Notes under the pieces: generated by a model
What the model saw: the letters and a program-made list of their open reading frames with translations, nothing else
Told to the model about the DNA's origin: nothing
Database searches by the model: none
Origin: Leucoraja erinacea
Lineage: Eukaryota
Direction of reading: 5' to 3'
Assembly: GCF_028641065.1 (NCBI RefSeq)
Contig: NC_073396.1
Span: 10,602,001-10,666,000 of the forward strand
DNA: 64,000 nucleotides
Program-made: the position numbers and the translations under genes
Shown: piece by piece, positions 2,886 to 47,431 of the stretch
How the letters are laid out: every line of letters starts with the position of its first letter
Numbering within the stretch: position 1 is the stretch's first letter

Positions 2886-2890
<5 letters not shown>
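2329..2890. mobile_element. Probable solo LTR (TG...CA, 562 bp) inserted in a (TA)n/(TG)n microsatellite
   Basis: Absent from copy B (~33330); begins TGATGAAG and ends CTTTTTCA (imperfect terminal inverted repeat). Confidence 0.6.
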
Positions 2891-2944
<54 letters not shown>

Positions 2945-2978
2945 TATATATATATACACACACACACATATGTATATA
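2891..2978. repeat. (TA)n/(CA)n microsatellite
   Basis: Direct reading. Confidence 0.95.
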
Positions 2979-3209
2979 ACATGTTATTGTGTATTGTGTG
3001 TTCTTTTTTGATTGTACTGCTGCCCTTTATTGTGTATGTGATGAATAAAAACTGATAGATTGATATGTATATACACACACTGAACTTTTTATCTCGTTTA
3101 TTATATTGTTTACAGTTCCTACATACTATGTTTGCATATTCTGTTGTGCTGCTGCAAGTAAGAATTTCATTGGTCTATATGGGCCATATGACAATAAAGC
3201 ACTCTTGAC

Positions 3210-3253
3210 CAAAGATTATAGAGTAGTATCTTTATATACCTCTAGTATCTTTG
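3210..3253. mobile_element. Short hAT-like MITE remnant (CAAAGAT...ATCTTTG) with 8-bp flanking repeat CTCTTGAC
   Basis: CTCTTGAC at 3202-3209 and 3254-3261. Confidence 0.55.
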
Positions 3254-3315
3254 CTCTTGACTTTCAGCGCGCATGTTCCTGGTTCAGCAGCAGCAGCAGC
3301 AGCAGCAGCACAGAG

Positions 3316-3337
3316 CAAAGATCCTCTAGGATCTTTG
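3316..3337. mobile_element. 22-bp palindromic hAT-like micro-element with 8-bp TSD GCACAGAG
   Basis: GCACAGAG-CAAAGATCCTCTAGGATCTTTG-GCACAGAG; copy B (~34020) has a single GCACAGAG. Confidence 0.75.
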
Positions 3338-4689: not shown

Positions 4690-5515
4690 TTGAAGTAAAA
4701 AGGCACTACTTACTGCACATGGTGGCTTGTGAGCTTTGGTTTAAAGTTGAAAGGCACTACTTACTGCAAAGGGTGGCTTGGGTGTTTTGGCTTGAAGTTG
4801 AAAGGCACTACCTACTGCAAATGGTGGCTTGGATGCTTTGCATGAAGTTGAAAGGCACTACTTACTGCAAATGGTGGCTTCGGTGCTTTGGCTTGAGGTT
4901 GAAAGGCACTACTTACTGCAAATGGTGGCTTGGGTGCTTTGCTTGAAGTTGAAAGGCACTATTTACTGCAAATGATGACTTGGGTGCTTTGGCTTGAAGT
5001 TGAAAGGCACTACTTACTGCAAATGATGGCTTGGGTGATTTGGCTTGAAGTTGAAAGGCACTACTTACTGCAAATGGTGGCTTGGGTGCTTTGGCTTGAA
5101 GTTGAAAGGCACTACCTACTGCAAATGGTGGCTTGGGTGCTTTGGCTTGAAGTTGAAAGGCACTACTTACTGCAAATGGTGGCTTGGGTGCTTTGGCTTG
5201 AGGTTGAAAGGCACTACTTACTGCAAATGGTGGCTTGGGTGCATTGCTTGAAGTTGAAAGGCTACTTACTGCAAATGGTGGCTTGGGAGCTTTGGCTTGA
5301 AGTTGAAAGGCACTACTTAAATGGTGGTGGGTGATTTGCTTGAAGTTGAAAGGCACTACTTACTGCAAATGGTGGCTTGGGTGCTTTGGCTTGAAGTTGA
5401 AAGGGCACTAACTGCAAATGGTGACGGGTGCTTTGGCTTGAAGTTGAAAGGCACTACTTACTGCAAATGGCAGCTTGGGTGCTTTGGCTTGAAGTTAAGA
5501 GGCACTACTGCAAAT
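4690..5515 (+). repeat. 51-bp minisatellite (~16 copies) inside the Helitron
   Basis: Unit TGGCTTGAAGTTGAAAGGCACTACTTACTGCAAATGGTGGCTTGGGTGCTT. Confidence 0.95.
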
Positions 5516-5892
5516 GCACTTACTTCCTGTTTGCACTGTATATTGATTTTAGATAAAACGCTACCACTTACGGCTGTTATCTTTGGCCATCTTACTCAGT
5601 CCCCCCTCCGCTGAGCAGGTGCAGAGAATTCTTCCCATCAAAGAAAAATAAAAGTGTTATTAGTGTTTAAAAAATGTTGAGAATCTCTCTCCTGTCAATC
5701 ACGCCCTGAAAGCCACACCTTTTCCGGTGGGAGGGGGAGGTGTTATAAAACCCGGAAGTGTGGGTGTGGCTCAGTCTCAGCATGATGGGGGAGGGAGAGG
5801 TCATGACATTGTCTGAGCTGTGAATCAACTGAACACACTGAATGTCTACTGAACTGTGAGTTTGGTGTTTTGCGTGGTTTTATGGTGGTTTC

Positions 5893-6100
5893 ACCCTGCA
5901 TGAAATGGTATGAAGCTGCATTTGAATTTGGTGGCCTTCGACCCTGCTTGAAATGGAATGAAACTGCACTTGAATTTGGCGGCCTTGGATCCAGCTTGAA
6001 GTGGTATGAAACTGCACTTGAATTTGGTGGCCTTGCACCCTGCTTGAAATGGTAGGAACATGGATTTGAATTTGGTGGCCTTGCACCCTGCTTGAAATGG
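5893..6100 (+). repeat. 48-bp minisatellite (~4 copies) inside the Helitron
   Basis: Unit CCCTGCTTGAAATGGTATGAAACTGCACTTGAATTTGGTGGCCTTGCA. Confidence 0.9.
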
Positions 6101-7244
6101 AATTTCAAGGAATAATCATGAGTCAACTGCCAGCCCACCAGCCGTGTGTGAGCTGCCAGCAGATCAGGCTTGAGGGACTGAGCTGCCACCCCAAGAACCC
6201 ATACCAGCACTCCAGAAAGCCCCCCCACTGGCCACCAATATTGGAATTGGTGGAGAGGTGGAATATTGTGTCGGGGGACCAGCCCTCCCGTGTGAACATG
6301 GGACCCAACGGGTCCCACTTAGTCTAGTTAATCATACAATTAAATCAATCAAATGCCTTGTATTTGACTAAGTGAGGGGAAACGCTTTGAGCAAACCCAA
6401 GACCACTTTCTTTAATTTGAGGTACTTAATTACAAACATGATTGTAATAATGTATTTATTTTGAGTTATGATTATGCAAGGATCTAGCAGGGTTCCCCTA
6501 AGATTTCTCCAAAAATTCAGCACTTCTAACATATTAAGGTTGCTGGCTGTGCATTCGAGCCAAAACCTAGACTTTTGGTGTTTAAACCTCACACATATTG
6601 GATTGATTTGTTTCGCATCTTTAGTGATTTGCACTGGATGTAATTTTTTGTATTTAGTTTGAACAAACAATGCTGTAGGGTTTGGTATATTTGTTTTTAC
6701 ACATCGTTGTTTGATACTAGGGGCACAGTGTGGCAGCTGACAGAGCTGTTGCCTCACAGCACCAGAGCCCTGGATGCCTCTGGTTTTCTCCCACTTTCAA
6801 AAGACATGTATGTTTATACGTTAATTGTCCTCTATGAAATCGTTGCTAATGTGTTGGAAGTGGATAAGATATTGGGATAGTATAGAACTAGAGTGAACAG
6901 AGTGATTGATGGTTGGCATAGATTTGATGAGCTGTTTCTTTAAACTCCATCTCTAAAGTTTGTTATTGAAATCTATCATTTCCAGATTTTTTTCAACTGT
7001 TTGAATTATGTTTTTCAGGTGCAAAACCTCATAAAGATGTTTTAAATAATGATAAGATCAAAATTGTCTACTTAACAGAAGTGAAGACAGCAACAAAATG
7101 TAAGCACTGCCATATTTGTTACACTAATTATATATGTAGGTTTAAATTGCCACATGTATTGAGATACGGTGAAAAACTTTTTTAATTGCTATCCGGGTTA
7201 AACATCCATGTCATGTGTGAATACAATCAAATCATGCAGTAACA

Positions 7245-29400: not shown

Positions 29401-31822
29401 GATGAGCTTGGAGACGAGAGAAACAGAATCATAATAACAAATTAAGCTTCTTTAGATAATCTGTGCTAAATACTGCTGTTATTTTGTGAAGAATCTCCTT
29501 TGCTTGCAGCCTAAAAGTGAGAAGAGTGTTTCCACGTCTAAAAATACCGCACAACACAATCATACGTCTGATTTTTTTTTTACCCACTCGCTCCTAATCT
29601 CCCAAGACTTGCCAAGAATTCTAGATCCCCATTGAATTGTAATCTTTAGCCTCAATACCATTCCATTTCTATTACCTACTCCATCAAGCAACCCTGAGAG
29701 ATCTGTTCCCTCTCTATGGCATCCTACTCTCAGTTCAGTTTAGTTTTATTGTCACGTGTACAGTGTCATAGGTACAGTGGAAAGCTTTCTGCAGGCTAAC
29801 CAGTCAGCAGAAAAACAACACATGATTACAATCGAGCCATTCACAGTGCACAGATACATGATAAGGGAATAACGTTTAGTGCAAGATAAAGTCAGTAAAG
29901 TCCAATCAAAGATAGTCTGAGGGTCACCAAGATAGTAGAACAGGACTCCTCTCTAGTTGTGGTAGGATGCTGGGGAGAAGCTGTTATCTCCAATTCTATG
30001 CCATCTCCCTGATTTTTGTTTTCCTATGGGCAGAGTTAATGCAATTTGCTAAACAATCTAATGGGTACACAGATATTGAACTTTTATTGGAGAGCAAAAA
30101 AACATTGGAAGCAGAGAAGATAGCCACAAAAATAAGAAGGAAGCTGCACAGAGAGCTTGGATTTTACTATGGAGAAAACAAAACACGTGGAACTAACAGA
30201 TATTGTCGAAAAGTTGGTAGACGTGTTGGATGGACATTAGTCATGGACATTTAGGAATTGTTTGCATTCTATGACCAGCCTTGTAAACTATTCTTAGATA
30301 ATCTGTCTCTATGTTGGTATCCTTTGAACACGGTCCTAGGTGTCAGTTATAATCAGTGCAATTTGGACAGCAAACACATACACAGTAATGCGTTTCTGAG
30401 AAACATGTCTAAGGAGAACATATTTCTTATTTAAATTATGAAAGTGCAATACAATCAATTAAATGCTTCTTAGTCACTGCTTTGTAGTGTAAAGGTGAAG
30501 AATTACCAGGTCCACCCCAGGTTAAGAGAGGGTTTTGTTTTAGTAATTAGAATCCTCACACAACCGAAAATGCCTACAGATCCACAGCAGCCAAGAAATC
30601 CATACTGCCAGTGTATTGGTTGTACATAAGATGAGTGTTTGTAAACCTGGGAGTGCCTGTTCCCAAAACATTAACTCCATATTGTCTTGCCAAACTGTTG
30701 CTGCCTGAACTGTTGAATGTTATCTAGTACCTTTTGTTTTAATTTAACCTTCTACGATATTAATAACTACAGACATCACTCACTGGCACCATTAGAGTCA
30801 TGATCTGTCAATTATTGAAGACACACCAGGTAATGAGTGAGGCTTCACCTTGCCCATGAATGCAGAGCAGATTTGAAAATTAAACTTAGGCTTTAAGTTT
30901 AGGTTTATTATTGTCAGAGGTACAAAGGTACAGTGAAAAGCTTTATTTTGTATGCTATCCAATCAGATAATATTATACATGAATAGAATCGTCAAACTCA
31001 AGTACAACAGAGAGAACAAAGTGCAAACTTAAAAAATGGCAGAAAATTGGTATTTTATTAAATGCATAATCTTAAAGTTTACCTTTGTGATCTTCAGGCT
31101 CATTTTTACTTAGTTCGCTCATACCATTTCTTGTTGCGATGTTTACATTTGTCACAACATGCTTCAGCCTTACATGCAGTGCAACAGAACCTTCTCCTGG
31201 AATATTCCATCTACTAATGGTTCCTAGCAGTTGAGCTGCAGAATCAAAATGGCAAAATCACCTTTAAATTCAACAAGAATTATAACTGGATATAAGTTAT
31301 TGTGTGCAGCTTGCACCTGAGAGTAAGCTTTGATTTCCTCTTCCGTATTAGTTTATTCCAAGTTTAGCAATTTCAAAATTAACAATTTTTTTTTTTTAAT
31401 TATCTTTCTACATCCTTCTTTCTATCGGTGCAAGAAGTAATATACACAAAATATGTTTATTTTTTTTTAATGGATTAATGACATCTCATAACTGTTCAGG
31501 GTGGAAATATCTGGGCCATTCCACCCCACCATCTCTGTACTTCACTCTACATTAACAATCCTACAAGGTCTCAGTACCAGCATTAGTTTACAGCCAAGGG
31601 ATAACTGACAGGGTGACAACCCTGGCCACACCATAGACAGGACCTGTCATTCGACTTACCGTTTAAAATAACAGTTCCTATTATTCCATTCAAATTAAGT
31701 TGATCTGTTGAATTTGCTAAAGAGGTAGTCGCCTTCTCCAGTGCGGAAACAAGATTTGCGATGTTCTGTTCATCTGCCAAAACTGAACTTAGTAGTGTAA
31801 TTGCGATCAGAACAGATTTCAT
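11367..31822 (-). CDS. C16orf89: C16orf89/UPF0764-like secreted protein, 7 coding exons, 307 aa
   Basis: Exons 31660-31822, 31083-31235, 23583-23733, 21222-21339, 19269-19422, 15089-15190, 11367-11449; all GT-AG, phases consistent, 924 nt. Motifs [51 protein letters not shown] and CSKHQT..AAL.GFL match the recalled human C16orf89 pattern; syntenic head-to-head with ALG1. Confidence 0.88.
12240..12550 (+). mobile_element. HE1/V-SINE-like SINE
   Basis: tRNA-like head, V-core, CR1-like 3' end GGGCCGAAGGGCCTGTTTCCATGCT and (CTAAA)n tail. Confidence 0.75.
13882..14656. mobile_element. Tigger/pogo-like non-autonomous DNA transposon with GC-rich interior
   Basis: TA|CAGTAAGCTCTCGTTATAA ... TTATAAAGAG...TTTACTG|TA. 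Confidence 0.6.
15089..15190 (-). CDS. C16orf89: C16orf89-like exon 6 ([34 protein letters not shown])
   Basis: AG/GT boundaries; most conserved block of the family. Confidence 0.92.
17490..18089 (+). mobile_element. CR1 LINE fragments (3' end and degenerate RT)
   Basis: [19 protein letters not shown] remnant; WNKLPEEV-type CR1 C-terminus. Confidence 0.7.
18090..18659 (+). mobile_element. 5'-truncated Penelope-like element (GIY-YIG remnant plus pLTR-like 3' end) with 17-bp TSD
   Basis: NLIYC..C..C.LLYIG..DRFA GIY-YIG-like remnant; TSD AAATATTTAGAGGGGAT at 18073-18089 and 18660-18676. Confidence 0.75.
19269..19422 (-). CDS. C16orf89: C16orf89-like exon 5
   Basis: MCCSNVQ...LCMKMMEVN...RNIFLEN; AG/GT boundaries. 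Confidence 0.88.
19883..20628 (-). mobile_element. Non-autonomous Helitron, 746 bp
   Basis: On the minus strand: A|TCATTTAGTTATTAAAAGACTGATCTTG ... CAGACCTAATGGGTCTG hairpin-CACTTGGTCTAG|T; ends resemble the 4303-6327 element. Confidence 0.78.
21222..21339 (-). CDS. C16orf89: C16orf89-like exon 4
   Basis: [39 protein letters not shown]; AG/GT boundaries. Confidence 0.85.
23583..23733 (-). CDS. C16orf89: C16orf89-like exon 3
   Basis: [19 protein letters not shown]...[10 protein letters not shown]; AG/GT boundaries. Confidence 0.82.
25615..27610. mobile_element. Cluster of CR1 LINE fragments in both orientations plus tandem Penelope-type fragments
   Basis: [30 protein letters not shown] and KFADDT motifs; ~65-bp tandem copies at 26000-26190. 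Confidence 0.75.
27615..28225 (-). mobile_element. Rex1/Babar LINE RT fragment
   Basis: [57 protein letters not shown]. Confidence 0.85.
28640..29345. repeat. GC-rich, G-run-rich insert with GGCGTGGGCCCAGCGGGGGT-type tandem repeats
   Basis: Direct reading; sharp GC contrast with the AT-rich intron. Confidence 0.7.
31083..31235 (-). CDS. C16orf89: C16orf89-like exon 2
   Basis: [10 protein letters not shown]...[12 protein letters not shown]; phase 1-1, AG/GT boundaries. Confidence 0.82.
31660..31822 (-). CDS. C16orf89: C16orf89-like exon 1 (signal peptide)
   Basis: [16 protein letters not shown] signal-like N-terminus; [18 protein letters not shown]; donor GTAAGT. Confidence 0.88.
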
Positions 31823-33438
31823 GCTTACTCGTCTCTCCCGCAGTTTGCCCATCAACTGCTTGTGGCGCTTCTTATGGAACTGTCTTTCACACGTGACTTA
31901 TTCCCTGCAATCACTGCTACAAGGCTGGTTCTTCTACAGAAGTTTTATTTACATTCATGCAGAGTCATGCAGCGTGGAAACAGGCCCTTCGGCCCAACTA
32001 ACTATTGCAAATGTTACTCCATTGCTCAAGCAGGGAGGGAGACAAAAGAGGGGAAACTATTGGCTAGTTAGCCTGACTTCAGTTGTAGGTAAGATTTTAG
32101 AGTCCATTATTAAGGATGAGGTTTACTTAAAAGCATTCAGCGGGTCAGGCAGCATCTCCACTGACCCCAAACGACGACTATACATGTGTACAAAGTACGC
32201 AAAAAGTTGCCACGTTTCTGGCGCCGATGAAGTTACAAAAGTACTCTTTGTTCTCAGTGGCGCCAGGTTCCTCATTCTTCTCGGCAGCCCCTCCCCCACT
32301 GTCCCTCATTGGTCAACATTTGACCATTGTGGGCTCTACCTTTCCTTGATCTCTTGTTTCCCTTTCCCCTGACAGTCTGAGGAAGAGTCTCAACCCAAAA
32401 CATCAACTATTCCTTTTCTCCAGAAATGCAGCCATCTACCCTCTTTCATTTTGGCGGCCCTCACCACTGGGTCCCTCTTTGTTCTCATCGGCACACCCCC
32501 ATAGCCTCCCTGCAAATCTTTCTTTACCCAACAGCAAAACTAGTTCCAATAGTTTGTACTTTAAAGTCTTTGGCATGGTCTGTTCCAAGAGCATGCCATT
32601 CACTTTGTAACTCATTTTCACCTAGCCCACAGTTAACAATGGCCTGCTTCCTTTGTCATTCATACTTTTTTTGCATATCTTTCATTAATGTTTTTTATAT
32701 CTCCGTCTTTATCTCTTGTTTCCCCGTCCCCTGACTCTGTCTGAAGATGGGTCTCACCAAGAGAGTTGTGAATCTGAGTAAGGCAGTGGAGGCCAATTCA
32801 ATGGATGTTTTTAAGTCAGTTAGCTGACTTGGGATATAGGGAAAAAGCAGGAACGGGGTACTGATTTTATCTGATAGGCCATGTTCATATTAAATGGCGG
32901 TGCTGGCTCAAAGGGCTGAATGGCCTACTCCTGCGCCTATTTTTCTATGACCAAAAACGTCACCTATTACTTTTCTCCAGAGATGCTGTCTGACCCGCTG
33001 AGTTACTCCAGCTTGTTCTGTCTACAGTTTAAATCAGCAGCTGCAGTTCCTTCCTACATTCACTTTGATAAGGCCATTTTCCCTTTTGCAATGAGTAACA
33101 GCAGTGTTGTTTTCTTTCAACCAAAAACCTGAACAGATTGTAAGGTATAGGACCCTAAAAACTAACGTTCAGGAACAGCCTCTTCCCTAAAGCCATTAAA
33201 CTATTCAATACTACAACCTTCAATTGAGCTCTGAACTACATGGACTATAATTGTTATTATTGCACTATTTGTGCTTGTTTGTTTTTTGTGCATGTCTGTG
33301 TATATATATGTGAGTATGTGTGTGTGTGTGTGTATATATTAAATGTTATTGTGTATTGTGTGTTCTTTTTTGATTGTACTGCTGCTGACAAGTTAATTTC
33401 ACTGCACTTTATTGTGTATGTGATGAATAAAAACTGAT

Positions 33439-33737
33439 TAACCATATAACAATTACAGCACGGAAACAGGCCATCTCGGCCCTACAAGTCCGTGCCGAAC
33501 AATTATTTTCCCTTAGTCCCACCTGCCTGCACTCATACCATAACCCTCCATTCCCTTCTCATCCATATGCCTATCCAATTTATTTTTAAATGATACCAAC
33601 GAACCTGCCTCCACCACTTCCACTGGAAGCTCATTCCACACAGCTACCACTCTCTTGAGTAAAGAAGTCCCCCCTCATGTTACCCCTAAACTTCTGTCCC
33701 TTAATTCTGAAGTCATGTCCTCTTGTTTGAAAAAAAA
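33439..33737 (-). mobile_element. Young 5'-truncated CR1 3' end, specific to copy B
   Basis: CCATATAACAATTACAGCACGGAAACAGGCC tail; absent from copy A at ~3056. Confidence 0.75.
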
Positions 33738-33851
33738 ATTGATATGTATATACACACACTGAACTTTTTATCTCGTTTATTATATTGTTTACAGTTCCTA
33801 TATATTATGTTTGCATATTCTGTTGTGCAAGTAAGAATTTCATTGGTCTGT

Positions 33852-33946
33852 ATGGGACATATGACAATACAACACTCTTAACCAAAGATCTTATAGCTTC
33901 GCTATAAGATCTTTGGTTAAGAGTGTTGTATTGTCATATGTCCCAT
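33852..33946. repeat. Perfect 46-bp inverted repeat with a 3-nt loop upstream of ALG1
   Basis: 33852-33897 is the exact reverse complement of 33901-33946. Confidence 0.95.
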
Positions 33947-33984
33947 GTCATATGTCCCCTTCGCTATAAGATCTTTGCTCTTAA

Positions 33985-34440
33985 CCTTCAGCGCGCATGT
34001 TCCTGGTTCAGCAGCAGCAGCACAGAGGCTTTGCAGTGAATGCAGGAATGCAGGGTCCGGGGTTCCACTATGGGGCCCCGGCTGCGCAGACTATGCGCCC
34101 GCTCGCGGGCTTCGCACTGCAGCCACGTCGCTGCTGCTCCTCCTGCCGTTGCCGTCATGGCGGCCTTGTGGTTTCTATCCACTTTATTCCTGGCGGTTTC
34201 CCTCTGCAGTCTTTACCTCGCGGGTGCGAGCGTGGCTCTACTGCTGCTGCTGTTGTTGTTGTTGGTGCCGGTCGTGTGGAGTCGCCGGCGGCGAGGCCGA
34301 GGAGGCAGCCGTCGCTCCGTCTGTGTGCTGGTGATGGGCGACCTGGGCCGCAGCCCCCGCATGTTGTACCACACGCTGTCGCTGGCCCGGCACGGCTTCA
34401 GTGTCACTGCTGTCGGCTATCCCGGTGCGTTCAAGACCAA
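33985..34440. promoter_or_regulatory. CpG-rich ALG1 promoter/first exon; likely shared region with head-to-head C16orf89
   Basis: Local CpG enrichment; divergent ATGs 2.3 kb apart (31822 and 34157). Confidence 0.6.
34157..34424 (+). CDS. ALG1: ALG1 exon 1 (signal anchor with poly-Leu, GDLGRSPRM)
   Basis: Kozak-like GCCGTCATGG; donor G|GTGCG. Confidence 0.93.
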
Positions 34441-37400
34441 GGCTAAACTAGCCACCTTTTATGTCATAGTGTGATACAGCGTGTAAACAGGCCCTTCGGC
34501 CCATCTTGCCCACACCTGCCAAACATGTCCCAGCTTCACAAGTCCCACCTGCCCGCGTTTGGACCATATCCCATCCAAACCTGTCTAACTGCTTCTTAAA
34601 TGTTGGGATAGTCTCTGCCTCAACTACCTTATCTGGAAAGTACACAAAAAAGCTGGAGAAACTCAGCGGGTGCAGCAGCATCTATGGAGCGAAGGAAAAA
34701 GGCAACGTTTCGGGACAAAACCCTTCTTCAGACTGAAACGTTGCCTTTTTCCTTCGCTCCATAGATGCTGCTGCACCCGCTGAGTTTCTCCAGCTTTTTT
34801 GTGTACCTTTGATTTTCCAGCATCTGCAGTTTCTTCTTAAATACCTTATCTGGAAGCTTAGAATGTACCCCTCAGATCTGGAACACGTCTGGAATATACC
34901 CCTCAAATTCCTATTAAATCTTTTCCCCTTCACCTTAAACCTATGTCCTCAATTCACCTATTCTGGGTGAGATATTCTGTGCATCTACCTGATCTATTCC
35001 TCTCATGATTTTATACACCTCTCTATAAGATCACCCCTCCTCCTGCGCTCCAAAGAGTCCCAGCCTACTTAACCTCTCCCTGTAGCTCAGACCCTCTAGT
35101 CCTGGCAACATCCTCGTAACTCTTCTCTGTACCCTTTCCAGTTTGACAACATCTTTCCTATAACATGGTGCCCAGAACTGAACACTTTTTTTGTTTTTAA
35201 ATTTCAAAATAGACTTTATTCAGGTAGTAAATATATACAATACGTGAACCGTGTGAAAATTCATCTGACATTCTCGGAGGCTATACAAATTGTTCAATAC
35301 TGTGTTTATACATTTCTCAGATTTCATAAATCTGTCCCCCACCCGTTCCACTCATGTGCCCCCCTGGCATGGGATACCTTCCCTGAACACAATACACTAA
35401 ATGGGGCCTCACCAACATCTTAAGTGTGATGCCTTTTATAAGTGTGATGTCTCACCAAAGTGCTCCAATTAATTCTTACATATTTAACCGTATTTAAGTA
35501 AAGCCAATAACAATTAATCACAGACACAAAATACTGGAGTGACCTGGAGAAGACAGGCAACATCTCAGGTGAGAAGGAATGGGTGACGTTTCAGGCAGAG
35601 ACCCTTCTTCAGACCTAATCAAGGTCTTCCTTCCTAAACAATTAATCATACAATTAAATCACATATATTTGACTAAGTGAGGGAAACGTTTTGAGCAAAC
35701 CCAAGACCACTTTCTTTAATTTGAGGCACTTAATTACAAACATGATTGTAATAATGTATTTATTTTGAGTTATGATTATGCAAGGATCTAGCAGGGTTCC
35801 CCTAAGATTTCTCCAAAAATTCAGCATTTCTAACATATTTATGCTGCTGGCAGTGTATTCGAGCCAAAACCTAGACTTTTGATGCTTAAACCTCACACAT
35901 ATTGGATTGATTTGTTTCTCGTCTTTAGTAATTTGCACTGGATATGATATTTTGTATTTAGTTTGAACAAACAATGCTGTAGGGTTTGGTATATTTGTTT
36001 TTACACATCGTTGTTTGATACTAGGGGCACAGTGTGGCAGCTGGCAGAGCTGTTGCCTCACAGCACCAGATCCCTGGATGCTTCTGGTTTTCTCCCACAT
36101 TCAAAAGACATGTATGTTTTAAGGTTAATTGTCCTCTATGAAATTGCTGCTAATGTGTTGGAAGTGGATAAGATATTGGGATAGTAAGAACTAGAATGAA
36201 CAGAGTGATTGATGGTTGACATAGATTTGATGAGCTGTTTCTTTAAACTCTATCTCTAATGTTTGTTATTGAAATCTTATCATTTCCAGATTTTTTTCTA
36301 ACTGTTTGAATTATGTTTTTCAGGTGCAAAACCTCATAAAGATATTTTAAATAATGATAAGATCAAAATTGTCTACTTAACAGAAGTGAAGACAGCAACA
36401 AAATGTAAGTACTGCCATATTTGTTACACTAATTATATATGTTGGTTTAAATTGCCACATGTACTGAGATACAGTGAAATCCATGTCATGTGTGAATACA
36501 ATCAAACCATGCAGAGTAAAGGGTTACAGCTACAGAGAAAGAATAGAAGGGCTGCAATGAATTGGGGTAGCAGGTAGCAGGAAACTGTGGACTATTTGAT
36601 ATAACACTATTGTTGGAAAAATACAACAATCCATATTTTAAAAAGTAGTTGCAGGACATTTGGAAAATTGGAATACAAGTTTAGCTTATAAGAGGACCAT
36701 TCAGTAGTCTGATAACAGCAGTTTGTTATCCTGAATCTGGTGATACCCGTTTTCATGCTTTTGCATCTTCTGCCCAATGGGTGAAGGGAGAAGGGGAAAT
36801 GACTGGTGTACGAGTGGTCCTTGATTATGTTGGCTGCTTTCCTGAGGCTACGTGAAGTATACATAGAATCGATGGAGGAGAGGGTGATTTGCGTGATGGA
36901 CTGGACAGGATCCACAACTCTACAATTTCTGCAGATGTCAAACAATGATACATCCAATTGGATGTGTTCTATAATGCAGCTGCAGAAATTTATGAGTCAA
37001 TTGAGACATGGTGAATTTCCTTTGTCATATGAGGAAGTAGAGTCATTGGTGTGCTTTCTTGGCCATGATGTCAATGTGATTGTACCAGAACGTAAAGTTC
37101 ATGACCATCTTCACTTTAGCACTATTGATGCAGTTTGGGGCGTGATGGTACCGAAGTAGCGATGAGGTTGTAGAGGAAGTAGAGGTTGAAAGCTTCAAGT
37201 TCCTCGGAGTAAATATCACCGGCAACATGTCCTGGACATATCAACGCAATGACCAAGAAAGCATGCGTCTACTTCCTCAGATGGCAAAGAAAATTCAGCA
37301 TGTCTCAATTCTAAGACATTCAGAGCCATACAGCACTGAATCAGGCCCTTTGGTCCACCTTGTCCAGGCTGGTTGTAATGGACTAATCCCATTTGGCTCT

Positions 37401-40400
37401 TAGCCCTCTAAACCCTTCCTATCCATATCTTCTTCTTGCGTTTGAGGCAGCAGAAGTCTACCTGTCTTTTAAACATTAGCCAAGGTTAATTGGCCACAGC
37501 TAATTTGCCCATAATGTATCTGGGTAATGGGAGAATGAGGTGGATGATGACAGGCAAGTGAAATAAAAAAGTTTTTACGGAAAAAAGTATTGGGAAAAGA
37601 TTTATGGGATCACATTGAATATGGAACAGTGCAACGCAGGCGCAGGCCCTTCGGCCCACAATGTCCATGCTTAAAATAATACGTTAAATTAATCTGTGCC
37701 TGCATGGAATCCATATCCCTACATTCCCTGCATATCCAAGAGTCAAGAGTGTTTTATCATCATATGTCCCAGAGAACAATTATGTTCTTATTTGCAGCAA
37801 CACAACAGAATATGTAAACATAGTAGACTGTAAACAATATAATAAATTAGAAAAAAAGTTCAATGTGTATACATGCACACACAAACATACACATAAAAAA
37901 CTAACAATAACAGTGCAATAATAATAATAGTCCTATGTAGTTCAGAGTTTATTGGAAGCTGTATTGTTTAATAGCCCAATGGCATTAGGTCATCAGGATA
38001 TCCATGGATGTCCATGTGCCCACATGAAAGTCTCTCAAATGCCGTTGCATCTGGCATGTTCCAGGCACCCACCACTCTCTCTGTGTAAAAAAAAACAAAC
38101 TTGCCCTGCAGATCTTCTTTAAACGTTGTCACTTTCACCTTAAAGTTATGCTCACTAGTCTTTGTCAGAGCCTCCATTGTATATCCCTTGAGGGCCACGG
38201 AGGCTTTCCTATGTCTCCAAGATTCAGATGCCCCGTGCGATTCCATCTTTGTATTCAGGCAAGGTTATTACAGATGTGTGGAGAGTCTGAATAATGTTCC
38301 AGCTCCAGCTTGATTACACCAAACAATGCTTGGGAAAATTGCATATGGAAAATATGTTTCAACTGCCATGTGGGCCAGTAATCAAGACATAAATTTAAGA
38401 GTACCTAGCCAAAAATATTGGAGGGGTGGAAATACAGAGATCACATTGTAAAATCTATGCCTGGAAGAGTGATGCAGGGAGATTCAGTTGTAACTCCCAA
38501 TAGGCTTGTGAAAGAGCAAGTTTGTAGGAGTGTGGAGGAAGAGCATGGGAATGGGATTAATGAGGTACCAGTATAAAAGCCGGCACAAGAAAAATGGGCC
38601 ACAAGATAAGAGTGTTTGAAATGCTTGTAGAGACATGACTGTTGTTTACAAACAAACACATTTTATTATTAATATTAAAATGTAGAAGAAAGCAATTTGA
38701 ACATTCCAAATTAACCCAGTCGGCGATAAGGATTTAACTTTAGTTAAAAGCAAAAAATGCCTGTGATGCAAAGATATTTTAAAATGTTTTGTAACCACTG
38801 TTTTCAAAGGGTTGAGATTTGTTTTAAATTTTATAGTTGGACCAAAGATGTTTCAATATGGGATCAAGATCTTTGTGCAGACATTGCAAATATGTTATGT
38901 CCTCTTAAGGATTGATCCACCATCGTACATGCTGTTGCAGGTAGAAGATTTACTCTTTTTGGCTTTCTCTTCTCTGAATTATAATAAATTGATAAGATTA
39001 AATGTTCTGTGGTTTTTTTTTTGACAATTTCAAACAGAATCCTCCAGGCCTCCCTGCTATTGCAGTTGTGTGGGCAGTATGTTTGTTAAGAGGAAGTAAA
39101 TTTATTATTGACTGGCATAATTATGGTTACACTATTATGGGACTGACACATGGAGATCATCACCCGATTGTGCTGATTGCCAAATGGTAAGCATAGAATG
39201 ATTTTCTATATGTAGTTTTGATTTTTTTTAAACGTCTTATTATGGCTGTTCTGTACACCGTTTACTTGAAGAATCAGTAAATGTTATTGTTTTGCACAAA
39301 TACAAAATTAAAGCCCTGTCCCACTGTACGAGTTCATTCAAGAGCTCTCCCGAGTTTAAATAAAAAATCAAACTCGTGGAAGCACGTAGAATGTACGTGG
39401 TGGGTACGTCGGAGCTCGGGGACGTCTCTTAGCAGCTCGTAACGCTAACGGCAGGTACTCGGGAAACGCGGTAAGCTCGGGAAGACTGGTGAAGATTTTT
39501 CAACGTGTTGAAAAATGTCCATGAGAGCCCCGAGTACCTACGAGCGGCCATTACCGTAAATCTCCGAGTTCGAATCGGGGAAACTCGGGAGAACTCTTGA
39601 ATGAACTCGTACAGTGGGACAGGGCTTTTAAACAACTGATGAACTATAACATCAGAACATACAAGTAAGAATAGGCCTCTCACGCCTGCTTCATTCAGTA
39701 ACATCAGGGCTGATCTTTTACCTCAGAAGCAAGGATAACTTGCTTCCACGTTCTTTTGAGGTGTCTATGATTGTAATGTGTAACTTCAGAATCCTCCACA
39801 GATGAGACAAAAGGTGACTGACAAGATAGATAGATAGATGGGTGGATGGTGTGTGCGATGGTGTGCTGGTTACGTTACCTGTGCAGGACTTCTATGTACT
39901 TTAGGGGCATAACCAAGTGAGAAATTCCCTGCAGTTAATGTGAATGTGGTATTTCTTCAAGTCTTGAGCATCTCCTTCCATCTTTTCCTCTGCCTCCCAG
40001 TAGTCCTTTCCAATGGCAGAGTTATAGATAGATTCTGTTTTGGGATCCTGTTATCAGGCACATGGCCAATATGGTCAGCTCAATGGACCCGATGAATGCA
40101 AATAGAACCTGGGAGAAGACACTGATGTTAGTTCATTTTTCTCTCCAGTGAATTTAGAGGATTTTGCAGATCCATGAACGATCAGATTCAGTTTAGTTTA
40201 TTGTCACATGTACCGAGGTACAGTGAAGAGCTTTTGTTGAAGTGCATTGCAGAAAGAGGGCAGAGATTATTGCTGCCCAGTAGACCACAAGTTTAGCTTG
40301 TAGCACGTGGATGTTAGTGTACAGGGAGCACAGAAATGGGTCTCTGAACCGAAACACCTTTCATTCTCTCACTCATCGAAAATATTCTGTGTTCATATTT

Positions 40401-43400
40401 TTTCAACCTCAGTGGATAATATTAAATTTTGCCACATTGTAATCAATTTATGCATTGATTTTGTTTTTAAATAGGTATGAGCATTTTTTTGGAAAGCTGT
40501 CTGATTCAAATCTGTGTGTAACTGAAGCCATGAAAGAAGACTTGAACACAAACTGGAATATTAAGTGAGCATTTATACTTTAACCATTGTAGATGTAAGC
40601 TGAATTGACCAGAATTTCTTAAAAAATCATAATAGCCACACAGCACAGAAACAGGCCTTTAAGCCCCCAATCAAGATGCCCCATCTAAGCTAGTCCCATT
40701 TCCCATGTTTGGCCCATATCCTTCAACCTTTCTGATCCACGTATGTCTTCAGCATTATTCTGTTTTATAAACCCAGTTCATTATGCATTCTTTATTTGGT
40801 TGGCTTCAATTAGTGTCATTATTTATTTCCGCAATGTATAGATCGGATGTCTATTGTGTCATTGTGGGCTGCTTGTATTTTGTGGCTGAGTTTTGAAATT
40901 TGAATGTTTCCGGCTAAAAATTCGTTTTTAGGAAGGTTCCTGGTTACATCAAGTCAGGTGGTGGAGTTAAGTATGAAAAGGCAGAATTCTAAAAATTATA
41001 TATTAGTCAGAAGTTGTCAGTATTCCAACCTAATTACCAAACAAACAGCCAGCTCCGATTCTAATTTTCAATTGATATTTAATTGGACCGAATGCTTCAG
41101 TTGTTCTAGCCATTTCCAAAGTAAAATATAAATAGCTCCTTAATATTAATTTTAGTTCCTAAGGAGTGCTATGAAGAAGCACTTATAATCCTAATGCCAA
41201 CATTAGGTTTTGCCAAGACTGTTTCAAATATGGACCAAATTGCTTAATTCCAGAGGTGAGGTTAAATGATTGCTCTCGACATAAAGGCTGCATTTGACTG
41301 AGTCCGATATCAAGGGGCCTTGGTAAAACTGAATTTAACTGCATCAATGGTTGAAGTCGTACCTCGTACAAAAAAGATAGTTGTGGTCGTCAGAGACCGA
41401 TCATTCTAGTTCCAGGACATCACTAACGCCTTTCTTTAGGGCAGTGACACACGCACAACGTCTTCATCAGTGACCATCCTTTCATTATAAGGTCAGATAT
41501 GGAGCTGTTTGCTGATGATAGCAAAATGTTTAATTCCATTCAAAACTCCTGAGCAGATAAAACAGGTCGTTCGACATTCAGACCTATTCAACATTCAGGT
41601 ATGGGTTAATGAGCTGAAAGTAATATTATGCATGTAACGATGATCATCTCCAACAAGAGAGCATTTAATGACCTTTTGTTAACACAGGAACATGATGGAT
41701 TATTCCACCAGCCTAAATTAATGCAACTTCAACAATATACAGGACATTGAAACTTGTTTGATTGGCACTCGCTAAACATTCATTCTTCCCACCTTTTGCA
41801 CAATGATTGCAGTATTTATCACCTACAAAATGCACTCAGTTACTCACCCAGGTTCCTCTTACAGCATCTCCCAAATCTGCAACCTATATCATCAAGAAGA
41901 ACAATGGCAGCACATGCATGGTAACAAATTACCTGCAAGTTCTCCATCCTGACTTGGAAGTATGTCGCTGGCCCTTCATTGCTCGGTCTAAATTGTGGAA
42001 CTCCCTACGCAAAAGCACCATGGGTACGGTCTCCACCAAAATGACTGCAACAGTTTAATAAGGCAGTGCGCCATTACCTTCTCACGACCATTATGGATGG
42101 GCAATAAATGCTGGCCTCATCAGCACCACCCGGATCTCAAATATGAATAATTAAAAAGAAGAGAAATCATAGTTCAGAGTTTTTAGCAGTATGCTTTTCT
42201 AGACATTCAATGACCATTTTACTTGGGTTAATTTTCTGTAGAACATTGAGTGTGCCTCTCTATTTTTCTTAAAAATGTATGATTTTTTTAACAGGGCAAT
42301 CACGTTATACGATACCCCATCTCCCATTTTCAAAGAAACTCCTCTTGAAGTGCAACATAAGTTGTTTAAGAAGCTTGCTAAGGATTTTGCACCATTTAGA
42401 ACAAGGTATGTTGTATATGTGTGATGAAAACGTTAAACACATTTTGTTTATTAAATACGTGGTAGCAAAGTAATCTTTTTGTATGATATTTTTATTTCAA
42501 AAATAGATGTAGAAAATAAACTTATTATATGACTATCAACTTCCAAAACCTATTTGGGCAAGTAGGTCTATTTAATGACACAATTTTACAGTTTCAGACA
42601 CTGGATAACAATGTATATGTGGTGTTAAATTAGGATTGAATCTGTGCCTTCCAATTTGGAACAGACAGCCTTTACAGAACTGAATGTTAATACTGGAGAT
42701 GTCTCATATGTCCAAGGAAGACCAGCATTGCTGATGAGTAGTACTAGCTGGACAGGTACGATTTTTCTTTAAAAAAATAACCAGTCCGATTGTGCTGTTT
42801 GGTGTGCATACTACTAATTGGATCATTATATGTCAAGTGAAAATGGTACAGGATGGAATGATGAGAGGGATACCAATGGATATAATCTTAGAAGGACTAG
42901 AAAGATGGAAGAATAGAAAATAGAGATGAAATATGGCATATGGGGAGAAGACAGGAAGAGGGCTTGGTTTAGTGCTGTTGGAACATAGCAAAATCTATAA
43001 GCGAGTTCGGTATTCTGAAAAATGTAAGGAATCATGGGATTTGTCAAAGGTCGGGGGGGGGGGGGAGAGAGGTGGGTGGAGGAGGAAGAGGCGGGTGGAA
43101 GAGGAAGACTGGACCAAAACCTGAGCCCAATTAACCGGTCTTGGTTCTTCGCCCCCCCCCCCCCCCCCCAATCGAGTGTCCCATCCCGGCCAGGGGACGT
43201 CCGGACCGACGGGACACCGACCCCCAGGCCCACAGCCAGCGCCAACTTCAGCCCAACCCCGCTCTGACTGCAGAGGAACCCGCTCCCCAATCGGCTGCTA
43301 CAGCGACAAGTGCCAGTTCGCCCCTGCCCTCCCTCAGTTGCCACCCCAAGTACAAGACGTACTTTCCACACCACCGGCTTCTGCACCTACAGTACCCGCT

Positions 43401-46400
43401 GTGACTTCATTCACAACCCCAAGGAGGAGCTTGAGCTCAGCCTCCTCTGGCCCTGCGCAAGACTGTGCCGCGCTGCGGGCGGCCTTCAGCCCCGACCTGG
43501 AGTTGGAGCTGGCCCAGTCTTGGGGCTGGGCAAGGGAGAGGGAGGAGGTTGTTGCTGCCGCCAGCACCAACAACAGCAGCTCCAGCGGGCGCCCTGCAAC
43601 TCAAGAGCACCCTCAGCGACGCGCCAATCCCGACCCCGGAAGAAACGCAAGCCTGCACACAATGTAGCACCACCGTTGCTGAGACTTTATTGCTTGTGAC
43701 CTATGACCTGGGCATGCGCCGTCAAAATACCGAACTTGCTTATTTGCATCACCTATTTTAATATTTATCCATATTAACTTAAGATGTGCTAAAGCTTGAC
43801 TTATGGGTCCGATAGATTCCTATTTGGCCCAAGAAGAAAGCTCCTTGGCTTCACCATAATGGATTATCCTTCTTTGATTTGCAGAGGATGAAGACTTCTC
43901 CATTCTATTAAAAGCTTTAGACGGTAGGTTTCTGATTATTTTTCTTTCTGTTTAAATATGAACATTATTTTTAAAGGATTTTATATGTACAAGTATTAAA
44001 TGAAAAATGATGGAAGGATTGCACATTTTTGTATTACTCTAATTTAAGCATCTTTTTCTGTTTTCCTTTCAGAGTATGATGGACTGATAACCGCTGGTAT
44101 GAAATTGCCATCCCTGGTTTGTGCTATTACAGGTATATTTCGGAACAGCATCCTTTCTTCCTCATTCCTCTCGGAAAACTGTTAATTACTGATTTTCTTC
44201 ACTGCCCCAAACCGTACCTTCTTTCTCACTCCACCTTCTCCCATCTATCCTCTTCCTTTTCCCCACTGGCCTGGACTTGCAGTGGAGAAGTCACGCACCT
44301 TCAGCAACCAACTCCAATGTAAAAATGTTTACGTTTATTTTGTTTTTCAGGAAAAGGTCCACTAAAGGAATTCTATAAGCGTGTCATTGAAAAAATGCAC
44401 TTTAAGCATGTTGATATTTGCACTCCATGGCTGGAAGCAGAGGACTACCCAGTGCTGCTAGGTACAATCGCTTTTAATATGCAAGTGTTCTATTAGGAAT
44501 ATTTTTTATATTTTTTAGCGTTACTTCACTATCAGACCTGATTGAGGATGATAGCATGAGAGATCTTCCAATATGTCATAATAGTTTATGTATTTTGTCA
44601 TATTTCAGGGAACATAGCTGAGCGTATTGAATATTAATATTTAGTAGTAAGTTTATAAAGATGAAGAACTTTGTATCCATAGAAATATTGGTAACTTGTG
44701 ATCATTCAGTGATTTAGATTCCTGAAGATGTTGAAGGAAAATATTTTTTTAGAATATTTAATGCTGAAATAGAAGTTCCATAATGCAATGGAAGTAAACA
44801 TTTATTTTAATGCAATTTTCCATATCTTAAAGATTGTAATCATTTTATAGGATCCGGTGATTTAGGAGTTTGTCTACATAAATCAAGCAGTGGGCTAGAT
44901 TTGCCAATGAAGGTAGTAGACATGTTTGGCTGTCGTTTGCCTGTGTGCGCTCTTGATTTCCAGTGGTATGTATAAATGAAATAATACATTTATCATTCTT
45001 CCGTTCACCTCAACAACTTTTATTTCAAGCATGCAGAGCTGGCCGCAGTTCATCTATGACTGTTGTGTGACAGTTCAATACAAACTTTCTTCACAGTATT
45101 CGACTTTATATCACATTCCCAAGAGCACCAAACTGCATCTTTGGAACAAGCATATTCTCACACATCTTTTATTCAGAATGGGTTCACCCATTCCTTCTTT
45201 CCAGGTGCTGCCTGTCACACTGAGTTACAACAGCATTTTCTGTCTATTTTCAGTATTTGTATGCTTCTTTCAACTTCTGCCTCCTAGCAGCCCTCTTATC
45301 ACTAATCTCTTCATTCTGTGGTAATTGAGATAAATTGTAAAGTTCCTCCCTTTATTTTACAGTCTACCAGAACTTGTGAAACACGAAGAAAATGGTCTAA
45401 TATTTAAAAATGCTCATGAACTAACTGAGCAACTAAAGGTAAAGTCTTCAGTATTTGTAATGAAAGAAAGTAGATTTTCAATGTTAAAGATTTTGACTTT
45501 TTATTCTACCACCTGTGCTGGCAACACTTTAAAACGTTGGGTTCTGCAATGTCCCATGAATAATTAGGTACAAGAGTTTGGTTAGTAACATTTAACATTT
45601 TATTCAGGTTAAAGATGTTATGCCTTTCTTACATTGATGCAGCAAACATCAAAATTAATATTCCAAATAACAATAACATACAGATTTGATATCTTAATTT
45701 ACTTGCACAATCTTCTATTACAATCTCACATATAATTGTCTATAAACCTGCCCTAAACTAAATTTGTCCAGCCTTGCAGTACGCATAGACGTTGCCTCTT
45801 AAAGATTGGCTACCAGTGTGGTAATTACTAAAACATTCTATGAATTTGACTGATGTAAAATTATGTATGTTAATCCATGCCATGGATGTATTTTCTCCAG
45901 GAGAATTTTTTATTATATACATATATATGTATGCTTATCCCACATTGTTACATTTTGTCTTTTATTGCAATAATTAAGTTCAAGTTTAAGTTCAGTACCC
46001 TTTTTAATCCAATGTTCTTCTGAAGAAGGATCTCGACCCAAAACGTCACCCATTTCTTCTCTCCAGAGGTGCTGCCTGTCCTGCTGAGTTACTCCAGTAT
46101 TTTGTGTCTACCTCCTTTATATATATAGCAGCTCAATGGAATACACAAAAATGGTTAAAAAGGTTAAGATTATTTTTGGTACAGAAGATTAGAAGGTGGT
46201 CCAGTGAAGATCGATAGGTCAAAATTGGTTTATTTTTGGGTGAATTAATGTGCTAAAAAAGCAAGAAGTATTTGCAGGGAGTAAAGGAAGAGTGTTAGAA
46301 ATTAGAGAATTATTAGGTAAGGTACAAATCTCAGAACAAATGTTTAAGAAACTTACCATTCATGGTGTAGTGAGAAATTTATGTTGAGCTTGGATGTCAG

Positions 46401-47431
46401 TGTTAACAAGTATTGCGAGGGAGTAGGACGTTGTAAAACTGAAAATTCGGTGTGTGATGATGGATGCAAGGAAGGAATCTGCAGGTGTTCCACAAGAATA
46501 AAACGGTGATATATTCAACGAACCGCCATCAATAAATGTATGGAAAGAGAGGGCAGTGAAGTCACTGAAGAGGGAGCAATGGGAACTGAGGTGATGACTA
46601 AAATCAAGAATGTTACATTCATAGAATGAAGATCAACTGACAAGGCCAGTATTTATTGCCCTTCCCTAATTGCCACTTGCAAAGTGGTAATGATAATCTA
46701 CCATACTGTTAGGTGGGAGAAAATAAATCATTTGGTCCTGCTACTATTTCCAAGTCAAGATATACATGACTTGTTTATTAGCCACCCATGTCTCTCTGGG
46801 TGGTGTGGTGTGCATTTACTGGAGACTGTAAATGCCTAAAATGTTGCATCTTGCTGCCAGTCAGGCTGCTTTGCCCTAAAAAGAGTGAATCTACATTTGG
46901 TCGCAAAATGACATGCCCAAGCAATTCATCATGTCCCTTGTATCAACATACAAGCACAGACTACTGTGGCTGCTATGTGTGGTTTTATTGTTATTTGTGA
47001 AAGTACTGGGCTGCGACAGTCGTAAGAGAAGAGACTGTAAGCTGAATTAAAAACAACGGGTATTACCTAAGGTTGGTATCATAGTAAAAGGCTTATTAAT
47101 ATCAGTTGAAATTCTTTAGGTAGGCTTTTATTGATAGCAAAAAGAGTGTTTTTATATAAATGCAAAATAGCCCCTATATTTTTAAATTTGGCAAGGACAC
47201 ATTTAACCTTTTTGATTTTGATTTAAAATTTGACCTATATGCGCAATTCTATCTAAACCTTTTCTATCTTTAGCTAATGACGTATGTTATTTTCAGCTTC
47301 TCTTTACAGACTTCCACAATGAAAGAAACAAACTTGGTATATTTAAAAGAAACCTGAAAGAATCCAAGATGGTTCAGTGGGATGAAAATTGGGATGATAC
47401 AGTACTTCCTCTGCTGCCAGCAAGTGACTGA
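34157..47431 (+). CDS. ALG1: Chitobiosyldiphosphodolichol beta-mannosyltransferase, 13 exons, 486 aa
   Basis: Exons 34157-34424, 36324-36404, 38837-38940, 39038-39186, 40475-40564, 42295-42405, 42634-42755, 43885-43923, 44073-44132, 44351-44461, 44851-44965, 45363-45438, 47297-47431; GT-AG, 1461 nt in frame. Motifs [70 protein letters not shown]. Confidence 0.97.
34639..34841. mobile_element. Penelope-type foldback element (72-bp inverted arms) with 14-bp TSD
   Basis: Arms 34640-34711 and 34735-34806; TSD TACCTTATCTGGAA at 34625-34638 and 34842-34855. Confidence 0.75.
36324..36404 (+). CDS. ALG1: ALG1 exon 2
   Basis: [21 protein letters not shown]. Confidence 0.93.
38837..38940 (+). CDS. 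ALG1: ALG1 exon 3
   Basis: [14 protein letters not shown]...YMLLQ. Confidence 0.95.
39038..39186 (+). CDS. ALG1: ALG1 exon 4
   Basis: [10 protein letters not shown]...[13 protein letters not shown]. Confidence 0.97.
39311..39627. mobile_element. PIF/Harbinger-type MITE
   Basis: Long TIRs AAGCCCTGTCCCACTGTACGAGTTCATTCAAGAG...; TTA direct repeat on both sides. Confidence 0.85.
40475..40564 (+). CDS. ALG1: ALG1 exon 5
   Basis: [23 protein letters not shown]. Confidence 0.95.
42295..42405 (+). CDS. ALG1: ALG1 exon 6
   Basis: [24 protein letters not shown]. Confidence 0.95.
42634..42755 (+). CDS. ALG1: ALG1 exon 7
   Basis: TAFTE...[12 protein letters not shown]. Confidence 0.95.
43000..43740. 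mobile_element. Unclassified TIR element (TA-flanked) carrying a captured gene fragment
   Basis: TA|AGCGAGTTCGGTATTCTGA ... TCAAAATACCGAACTTGCT|TA, 17/19 inverted match; GC-rich interior. Confidence 0.72.
43293..43430 (+). pseudogene. Decayed ZFP36/TIS11-family tandem CCCH zinc-finger fragment
   Basis: Across three frames: [10 protein letters not shown] / HPKYKT / [23 protein letters not shown], versus recalled ZFP36L1 [45 protein letters not shown]. Confidence 0.82.
43885..43923 (+). CDS. ALG1: ALG1 exon 8
   Basis: [13 protein letters not shown]. Confidence 0.95.
44073..44132 (+). CDS. ALG1: ALG1 exon 9
   Basis: [19 protein letters not shown]. Confidence 0.95.
44351..44461 (+). CDS. ALG1: ALG1 exon 10
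   Basis: GKGPLKEFY...[14 protein letters not shown]. Confidence 0.97.
44851..44965 (+). CDS. ALG1: ALG1 exon 11
   Basis: [25 protein letters not shown]. Confidence 0.97.
45363..45438 (+). CDS. ALG1: ALG1 exon 12
   Basis: [14 protein letters not shown]. Confidence 0.95.
47297..47431 (+). CDS. ALG1: ALG1 exon 13 (terminal)
   Basis: LLFTDF...[17 protein letters not shown]. Confidence 0.95.
   Translation, partial: LLFTDFHNERNKLGIFKRNLKESKMVQWDENWDDTVLPLLPASD

Follow-up and report, generated by a model that had tools for sequence, protein, structure and literature searches.

The window analyzed here, a 64,000-nucleotide stretch of the genome of the skate Leucoraja erinacea (NCBI RefSeq assembly GCF_028641065.1, contig NC_073396.1, positions 10,602,001 to 10,666,000), contains an ALG1-like gene with a mobile element in its seventh intron. 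The element, at window positions 42999-43741, is a 743-bp non-autonomous DNA transposon, and inside it lies a decayed piece of the gene for ZFP36, or tristetraprolin (TTP). The host gene is defined by full-length glycosyltransferase relatives, assigned by Pfam to glycosyltransferase family 1/4, which map 13 exons over 34160-47416 by tblastn; the element occupies the seventh intron (42756-43884) on the same strand as the gene. One contig of run X20, whose RNA nature is putative, joins exon 7 to exon 8 over the whole intron, and the location given by the initial annotation of this DNA is thereby borne out. The gene is one that we take to be ALG1, both from its sequence and from a lysine-methyltransferase neighbor; a PDB search with its exon 1 returned no match. 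The copy in ALG1 is most likely a silent intronic passenger.

Inverted arms at 42997-43018 and 43722-43743, 91% complementary, bound an island of 62% GC set among adjoining 200-bp bins of 27-44%. Three ZFP36-like peptides sit in three separate forward frames, and the finger-2 stretch exceeds the Pfam cut-off for zf-CCCH (E 1e-4) and matches the structures of ZFP36L2 (E 6e-9) and tristetraprolin (E 9e-7). The repeats, the GC-rich island, the peptides in three frames and the likeness to the ZFP36 family had all been pointed out in the initial annotation, and each survives scrutiny. Its account of the ends needs adjustment: the repeat described as 19 bp is real but measures 20 bp and begins one base further out (42999-43018 and 43722-43741), and the TA noted on both sides is present but is not the target duplication, for which empty sites give AT. 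That TA is composed of the T of the AT duplication and the outer A of the repeat. The first C of the peptide CYSDKCQFA is no zinc ligand, as it aligns to an arginine codon of the donor gene, changed at a CpG.

The window copy is a shortened form of its family (Table 1). About 90 bp inside the left end, with a splice-donor-like site, are kept by most copies but missing here; that site is present in 18 of the 22 cargo copies having both ends. The captured piece retains the second half of finger 1, the linker, finger 2 minus its first cysteine and a portion of the C-terminal region. It is broken by six deletions, of 6-35 bp each, its 3′ part including the stop codon is gone, and its non-CpG divergence from the donor gene on contig C38 is 9.7%. 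In coding copies of the family, a SAP/YqaJ gene follows the left end, while the right end leads, on the opposite strand, into the transposase gene.

Table 1. Features of the element and of the adjoining ALG1-like exons, in window coordinates (L, locus and C, contig of the genome searched)
Feature	Position	Strand	Basis or comparison
ALG1-like exon 7, upstream of element	42634..42755	+	tblastn; splice joints in run X20
Left target-site duplication (AT)	42997..42998	.	A|AT|T in 7/8 paralogous empty sites of other copies
20-bp left terminal inverted repeat, differing from the right one at 2 positions	42999..43018	+	
Left end of putative ISL2EU element	42999..43052	+	Over 54 bp: 89% to L212, 96% to L209
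G and C runs and GC-rich filler, common to siblings without ZFP36 piece	43053..43293	+	No Pfam family in 150/153 open stretches of sibling and cargo elements
Captured ZFP36/tristetraprolin exon-2 fragment	43294..43597	+	273/307 aligned bases equal to C38 donor, 7 blocks
Leftover of downstream GC-rich filler	43598..43636	+	Alignment
Right end of putative ISL2EU element	43637..43741	+	74% to L212 over 107 bp
Right terminal inverted repeat	43722..43741	-	20 bp
Right target-site duplication (AT)	43742..43743	.	Empty sites of other copies
ALG1-like exon 8, downstream of element	43885..43923	+	tblastn; splice joints in run X20

Copy number and donor gene

A DNA search of the genome (G000, 2.19 Gb) with the element gave 1969 candidates; the 40 that were scored all proved to be further copies, with 70-84% likeness in the main match. 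A 32-mer from the left end has 350 exact matches and a 28-mer from the cargo 83, on about 28 contigs, with none for either control. The cargo 28-mer recovers 6 of 13 cargo copies bearing the left-end pattern, 4 of 7 on C1, and 18 of 41 overall; these three sensitivity sets give estimates of 180, 145 and 189 cargo copies, with 95% ranges between 92 and 451. The ZFP36 cargo is therefore present at no fewer than 83 places—likely at some 150-190—and a like estimate puts left ends at about 790 (444-2555). Flanks differ at every copy's site. The initial annotation had raised the possibility of a multicopy family, and the exact left-end matches bear this out; its larger proposal, a non-autonomous DNA transposon with a captured ZFP36-family piece, holds as well. 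The donor, on C38, lacks inverted repeats.

Comparison of interiors qualifies that picture. The ZFP36 cargo is shared by many copies, but most left ends enclose something else: on C1, 39 left-end matches resolve into 36 loci, 7 with the ZFP36 piece and 29 without. Cargo-free members have other mosaic GC-rich interiors, whose modules are shared among themselves and with common repeats. Among 153 open stretches of at least 62 amino acids (aa) from sibling and cargo elements, 150 gave no Pfam domain, a weak test that also missed the broken finger of L024. One locus, L050 (G000:C1:83561500-83571499), carries four tandem left ends at 1.8-2.2 kb spacing and no right ends.

By sequence comparison, the donor is identified as the ZFP36/TTP paralog on C38 (L084), and not ZFP36L1 or ZFP36L2. 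It lies at C38:7.170-7.172 Mb, 70 kb from MED29 exons at C38:7.240-7.244 Mb; in human, too, ZFP36 is found near MED29. The gene has a TATA box, a short first exon, an intron recognized from splice signals, a long second exon and AU-rich 3′ sequence, and it encodes intact tandem CCCH fingers with no Tis11B_N domain. Orthologs occur in other skates, rays and sharks, and the nearest named relatives of its protein come from skate, sawfish and rays. No family ends or repeat matches were seen in the 10 kb examined around it. The other two intact paralogs, L032 (C8) and L033 (C9), are of ZFP36L1/ZFP36L2 type, both with the Tis11B N-terminal domain (PF04553); they were rejected as donors, matching only 72-78% over about 150 bp of cargo. 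The leader of finger 2 in the donor (L084:4850 region) has proline where these two paralogs have leucine, and intact element copies have both, consistent with a CpG change. The same residue explains why a first finger pattern, with leucine at this place, missed the donor; a shorter pattern found it among 43 matches (control, 59) that are mostly due to chance.

Full-length elements measure 1.0-1.3 kb, with a cargo of about 560 bp equivalent to L084 4940-4380. It begins midway through finger 1 and ends 19 nt beyond the stop codon, and so includes the C-terminal motif, through which ZFP36 binds CNOT1. Breakpoints at donor offsets of about 5 and 566 recur over 41 aligned copies, the same two in most; because both cargo ends recur in this way, a single capture event is indicated. 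Cargo-free siblings share the filler of both sides and have, in three of five sibling matches, GCCG or GCTG at the point where the cargo starts with GCCG, which suggests template switching guided by microhomology. The microhomology amounts to 4 bp at the 5′ junction and about 2 bp at the 3′ junction. In L010 and L023, a 22-bp filler unit just upstream of the cargo has grown into a minisatellite.

Such an intron-free ZFP36 coding sequence with frameshifts might be taken for an ordinary processed pseudogene between chance inverted flanks. The probability of this is negligible: the copy number of the ends, in the hundreds, the AATT empty sites described below and the shared breakpoints rule it out, and the varied flanks, the lack of poly-A and the position of both cargo ends inside exon 2 point the same way. 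An RNA step at the moment of capture is a different proposal, in which a truncated retrocopy or a template switch onto complementary DNA brought in the ZFP36 piece and later spread was still DNA transposition. The cargo has no intron, its donor lies on another chromosome, and ZFP36 gives rise to an abundant immediate-early mRNA. Retrogene capture within bat Helitrons is documented, moreover, in the available part of PMC4224331. We nonetheless judge an RNA template to be rather unlikely, for full-length copies carry no poly-A, no 3′ untranslated region (UTR) beyond those 19 nt and no filler duplication around the cargo, and ZFP36 exon 2 is long enough for DNA capture to be intron-free.

Carrier and target site

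The A|AT|T target, a THAP-HTH-DDE transposase and a second open reading frame (ORF) with a YqaJ domain together assign the carrier to the ISL2EU superfamily (PHIS). Eight of 52 two-ended elements have flanks that match another fetched repeat copy; seven give a 4-base overlap, corresponding to an AATT empty site, and the eighth shows an unrelated offset. Across the 52 elements, the base before AT is A in 41 and the base after it is T in 46. Because the empty sites read AATT and not AATATT, the target duplication is AT rather than TA.

These observations also bear on a TA-targeting superfamily of the Tc1/mariner type, or the Spy group, which makes no target duplication. TA does adjoin the 19-bp repeat in 50-52 of 52 copies per side, and a zero-duplication reading formally fits the empty sites. 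Either assignment is nevertheless very improbable: the AATT sites at 7/8 loci conflict with Tc1/mariner, and between these same ends lie a THAP-HTH-DDE_Tnp_4 transposase and a YqaJ ORF, an arrangement typical of ISL2EU. Spy elements, in the available portions of PMC4482050 and PMC9179366, mostly have one ORF and prefer AAATTT.

Evidence for the transposase comes from 30 DDE_Tnp_4 loci, two of which lie behind an end 80-82% like the family left end; the remaining 28 have no family end within 1.5 kb, and other DDE_Tnp_4 families were rejected as the carrier. One frame, L134:4790-6415 (G000:C16:36542789-36544414), is open over 527 aa, with THAP, HTH_Tnp_4 and DDE_Tnp_4 domains all above the Pfam cut-off. 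It is identical to a database protein of Leucoraja erinacea, and beyond that the proteins nearest to it (45-53%) are unnamed ones of THAP-HTH-DDE type from marine invertebrates and from some fish. Decayed coding copies bounded by both family ends were found at L148, L211, L212, L213 and L221, the first four with transposase-homologous remnants between the ends. L212 (C12, 4.3 kb) combines both ends of the window element's subtype, a transposase remnant 68-77% like the C16 protein, and remnants of the second ORF; of its ends, about 146 bp on the left and 108 bp on the right are retained in cargo copies. The second gene lies behind the left end, convergent with the transposase, and comprises a SAP N-terminus (L165) and a YqaJ domain, scored in L221 (both family ends) at E 2e-16 and in L209 (left end) at E 6e-14. 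The two longest picks by left end, L039 (4.5 kb) and L094 (4.3 kb), were set aside, as they hold a long interspersed nuclear element (LINE) insertion and simple repeats and no transposase.

Several further observations concern these transposase loci. The L134 frame is the only open full-length transposase of this family among the matches. Its own end has been replaced by a non-autonomous family member inserted in the leader, and a second-ORF fragment begins 1.5 kb downstream. Domestication of the frame as a THAP-transposase gene is possible; a Rhinoraja protein matches it at 77% identity across half its length. Another Rhinoraja protein entry, P0213, joins a THAP region 63% like the C16 transposase to SETDB1 domains (DUF5604, Tudor), either as a fusion or as an annotation artefact. 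In two other DDE_Tnp_4 families (L104-L106 and L109; L114, L115, L117 and L119), identity between copies reaches 96-99.5% and frames stay open for about 450 aa, and one of the two families has a convergent YqaJ ORF (L196), which points to a young, possibly active ISL2EU family in skate. At L194, L195 and L201 (G000:C14:24.83-24.86 Mb), three clustered YqaJ frames of 415-462 aa are open and lack family ends, possibly a domesticated exonuclease cluster.

Decay, origin and transcription of the cargo

Cargo copies differ from the donor at 9.1% of non-CpG and 20% of CpG positions, with 4-14 gaps each, and from the commonest letter at each site by a median of 5.4% (2.8-7.6%). The commonest letters in turn differ from the donor in 17 synonymous and 6 non-synonymous codons of 163, or 8/0/17 changes by codon position. 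The predominance of synonymous differences (17/23) reflects selection on the donor, and gives the direction of transfer as host to element. Changes specific to single copies are spread over the codon positions at 5.3/4.1/6.6% (non-CpG), and the copies appear to have decayed about neutrally, with no selection on protein. The first half of finger 1 is absent from the cargo of every copy, and an 11-bp deletion in most copies removes the first cysteine of finger 2 and shifts the frame. Finger 2 is complete in 5 of the 41 copies, and in none is it in one frame with the C-terminal motif. Binding to AU-rich elements needs both fingers. With finger 1 partial in all copies and finger 2 frameshifted in most, no working RNA-binding protein is expected, and the cargo itself is without sign of function.

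Capture is likely to date from the early skate lineage, a placement that draws on few sites: at the protein level the cargo shares 4 sites with the donor and 4 with its Rhinoraja ortholog, compared with 17 with the donor and 5 with sawfish when sawfish is the reference, so that it is equidistant from donor and Rhinoraja and nearer to the donor than to sawfish. DNA contigs of four related organisms all contain the family with cargo at high depth. The insertion in ALG1 itself is bridged, under a 31-letter rule, in two of four related runs (X2 on the right side, X7 on both), and in the remaining two the contigs extend 16-21 letters inside the right repeat.

Taken together, we consider it very likely that the window element is a decayed copy of a non-autonomous ISL2EU-type transposon that captured a skate ZFP36 fragment once and then spread to some 150-190 sites. 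The starting element would have been an internally deleted ISL2EU derivative already full of GC-rich filler. Into it, early in skate history and in a single event, some 560 bp of ZFP36 exon 2 were likely copied by template switching during repair at short microhomologies. A burst of transposition would have followed soon after capture, with the copies likely moved in trans by ISL2EU transposase, and these would since have decayed without selection on the protein.

A number of observations weigh against parts of this account. DNA and RNA templates are not distinguishable because the capture lies within one exon, and internal deletions show only a modest enrichment of microhomology of at least 2 bp (45/116, or 39%, against 24% expected). 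The lower rate of change at second than at third codon positions (4.1 versus 6.6%) may reflect either composition or slight constraint. Similarity or pattern, rather than random sampling, guided the choice of the 41 aligned copies. The pairing of ends and genes comes from decayed copies, as no intact autonomous element combining both ends with both ORFs turned up. The cut point is a matter of convention, since AAGCG ends with an AT duplication and TAAGCG ends with none would leave identical empty sites, and under the AT reading the repeats begin with AA instead of the GG usual for ISL2EU. Finally, the empty site in the orthologous ALG1 intron 7, which the initial annotation had looked to, did not materialize: the insertion is shared with related species, no empty orthologous site appears among the joints listed in the four related runs, and no paralogous empty site was found for the window copy. 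A partial ALG1 duplicate in the window, with exons 1-2 only, gives no empty site for the element either.

Sequencing reads show that some family copies are transcribed on either strand, which does not imply function. Besides the contig that joins the ALG1 exons, run X20 contains one that comes from a cargo copy at another place. In X24 and X23, raw RNA reads accumulate at the family ends, and their flanks are so varied (agreement 0.38-0.51) as to fit passive read-through. In X23, a stranded run of polyadenylated RNA from a related species (organism D), the family letter at 43366 occurs antisense to ZFP36 in 10 reads, which have 7 starts, and 6 reads span the filler-cargo junction in sense. About 6% of this run was read, and its strand was set from ALG1 exon 10, by 20 reads to 1.

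These reads raise the possibility that the cargo was kept or amplified as RNA, with sense and antisense small RNAs tuning the ZFP36 donor, or with the disguise of a host gene blunting transposon silencing. An epigenetic-conflict model of this kind is stated in the available part of PMC12001565, the sense junction reads and the antisense reads are as it would have them, coding ISL2EU copies have convergent genes driven from both ends, and most cargo copies keep the splice-donor-like site. We regard the idea as improbable. The reads are very few, come from a related species and fall mostly on ends whose varied flanks recall read-through; divergence of about 9% at non-CpG to 20% at CpG positions, together with the gaps, limits matches of 21-30 nt to the donor; and about four fifths of left ends are cargo-free (29/36 on C1), so the family spread without ZFP36. 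Its boldest form deserves equally little credence: a first gene-capturing ISL2EU family in which two-sided transcription of 150-200 copies of the tristetraprolin effector half yields donor-regulating small RNAs, or shields the transposon. If true, it would amount to an epigenetic conflict in a vertebrate between a transposon and its donor gene, a master regulator of inflammatory mRNA decay.

Relation to known gene-capturing elements

The skate element has the attributes of a Pack-TIR: terminal inverted repeats (TIRs) around host sequence, a parental copy without those ends, and several copies at distinct sites. Mutator elements, including Pack-MULEs, have long TIRs and target duplications of 8-11 bp; Pack-MULE identity is rejected for the skate element, with its 20-bp TIR and 2-bp duplication. 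The comparisons below hold for the available portions of the papers cited. Tan et al. 2021 (PMC8277862) list 370 Pack-TIRs in 100 animal genomes, only four of them multicopy; the frog examples quoted there have three to five copies, 87% are hAT or TcMariner, and its main text mentions neither Harbinger nor shark. Like the animal multicopy cases, the skate family is a TIR transposon carrying a host-gene fragment, with its parental copy on another chromosome, distinct target sites, GC-rich cargo and no orthologous cargo-free element at the donor. It differs in its copy number (at least 83, likely 150-190), its ISL2EU carrier and its cargo of regulatory-protein coding sequence.

As described by Han et al. 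2015 (PMC4482050), ISL2EU is defined by the A|AT|T target, a THAP-HTH-DDE transposase and a YqaJ second ORF, all of which the skate elements share together with short TIRs; the skate TIRs start with AA, unlike the usual GG, which is typical and not strict. Han et al. and Etchegaray et al. 2022 (PMC9179366) report PHIS as absent from the sharks surveyed and ISL2EU as absent from elephant shark; ISL2EU is confined to teleosts among the vertebrates examined there, and a gene-carrying ISL2EU is not mentioned in the portions at hand. The Pack-PIF elements of maize and rice (Gisby and Catoni 2022, PMC8903248), which form clusters of tens to more than 100 elements, belong to the same PHIS superfamily and likewise have cargo and cargo-free groups with shared ends. 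Unlike the skate family, they are plant elements of the PIF/Harbinger group, with a 3-bp TWA duplication and a Myb-type second ORF, and their model is the capture of DNA between two neighboring insertions, whereas the skate donor has no family ends in the 10 kb examined. The Helitrons of bats and Xenopus (PMC4224331, PMC12001565) are, like the skate family, vertebrate DNA transposons that have multiplied pieces of host genes many times over—NUBPL about a thousand times, armc5 17 times—but they are rolling-circle elements without TIRs or target duplication that take mostly 5′ gene parts, whereas the skate transposon is of the cut-and-paste TIR kind and took the 3′ coding half. The remark in the initial annotation that such capture is little described in vertebrates thus fits animal Pack-TIRs, with four multicopy cases of 370, but not bat Helitrons, with their thousand copies.

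The skate family works like the plant Pack-PIFs or the animal multicopy Pack-TIRs. It is notable for what carries it, for the lineage of its host, for its copy number and for its cargo, but is probably neutral. Captured-gene amplification on this scale is rarely reported for vertebrate cut-and-paste transposons, and the family is tens of times larger than the animal multicopy cases in the available part of PMC8277862. Its one identified donor, its common breakpoints and the siblings that lack cargo allow both the act of capture and what came after it to be followed directly. An ISL2EU element with a still-open transposase frame is, moreover, placed in a cartilaginous fish, where the two surveys, as available, had reported absence. 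No account of the skate family, of a gene-carrying ISL2EU or of ISL2EU in cartilaginous fish was found in the literature; Repbase and Dfam lay outside this search and may hold the family. Having some 150-190 diverged copies of coding sequence from one regulatory gene, skates provide a natural setting in which to ask if, in a vertebrate, small-RNA silencing is brought upon a donor gene by fragments captured from it. On a practical level, the copies are a possible source of error in ZFP36 annotation and in read mapping for skates.

Elsewhere in the window, positions 192-7174 and 31280-36479 form a partial tandem duplication, 82-95% identical in blocks, which takes in ALG1 exons 1 and 2; these are present a second time some 31 kb upstream of the complete gene.

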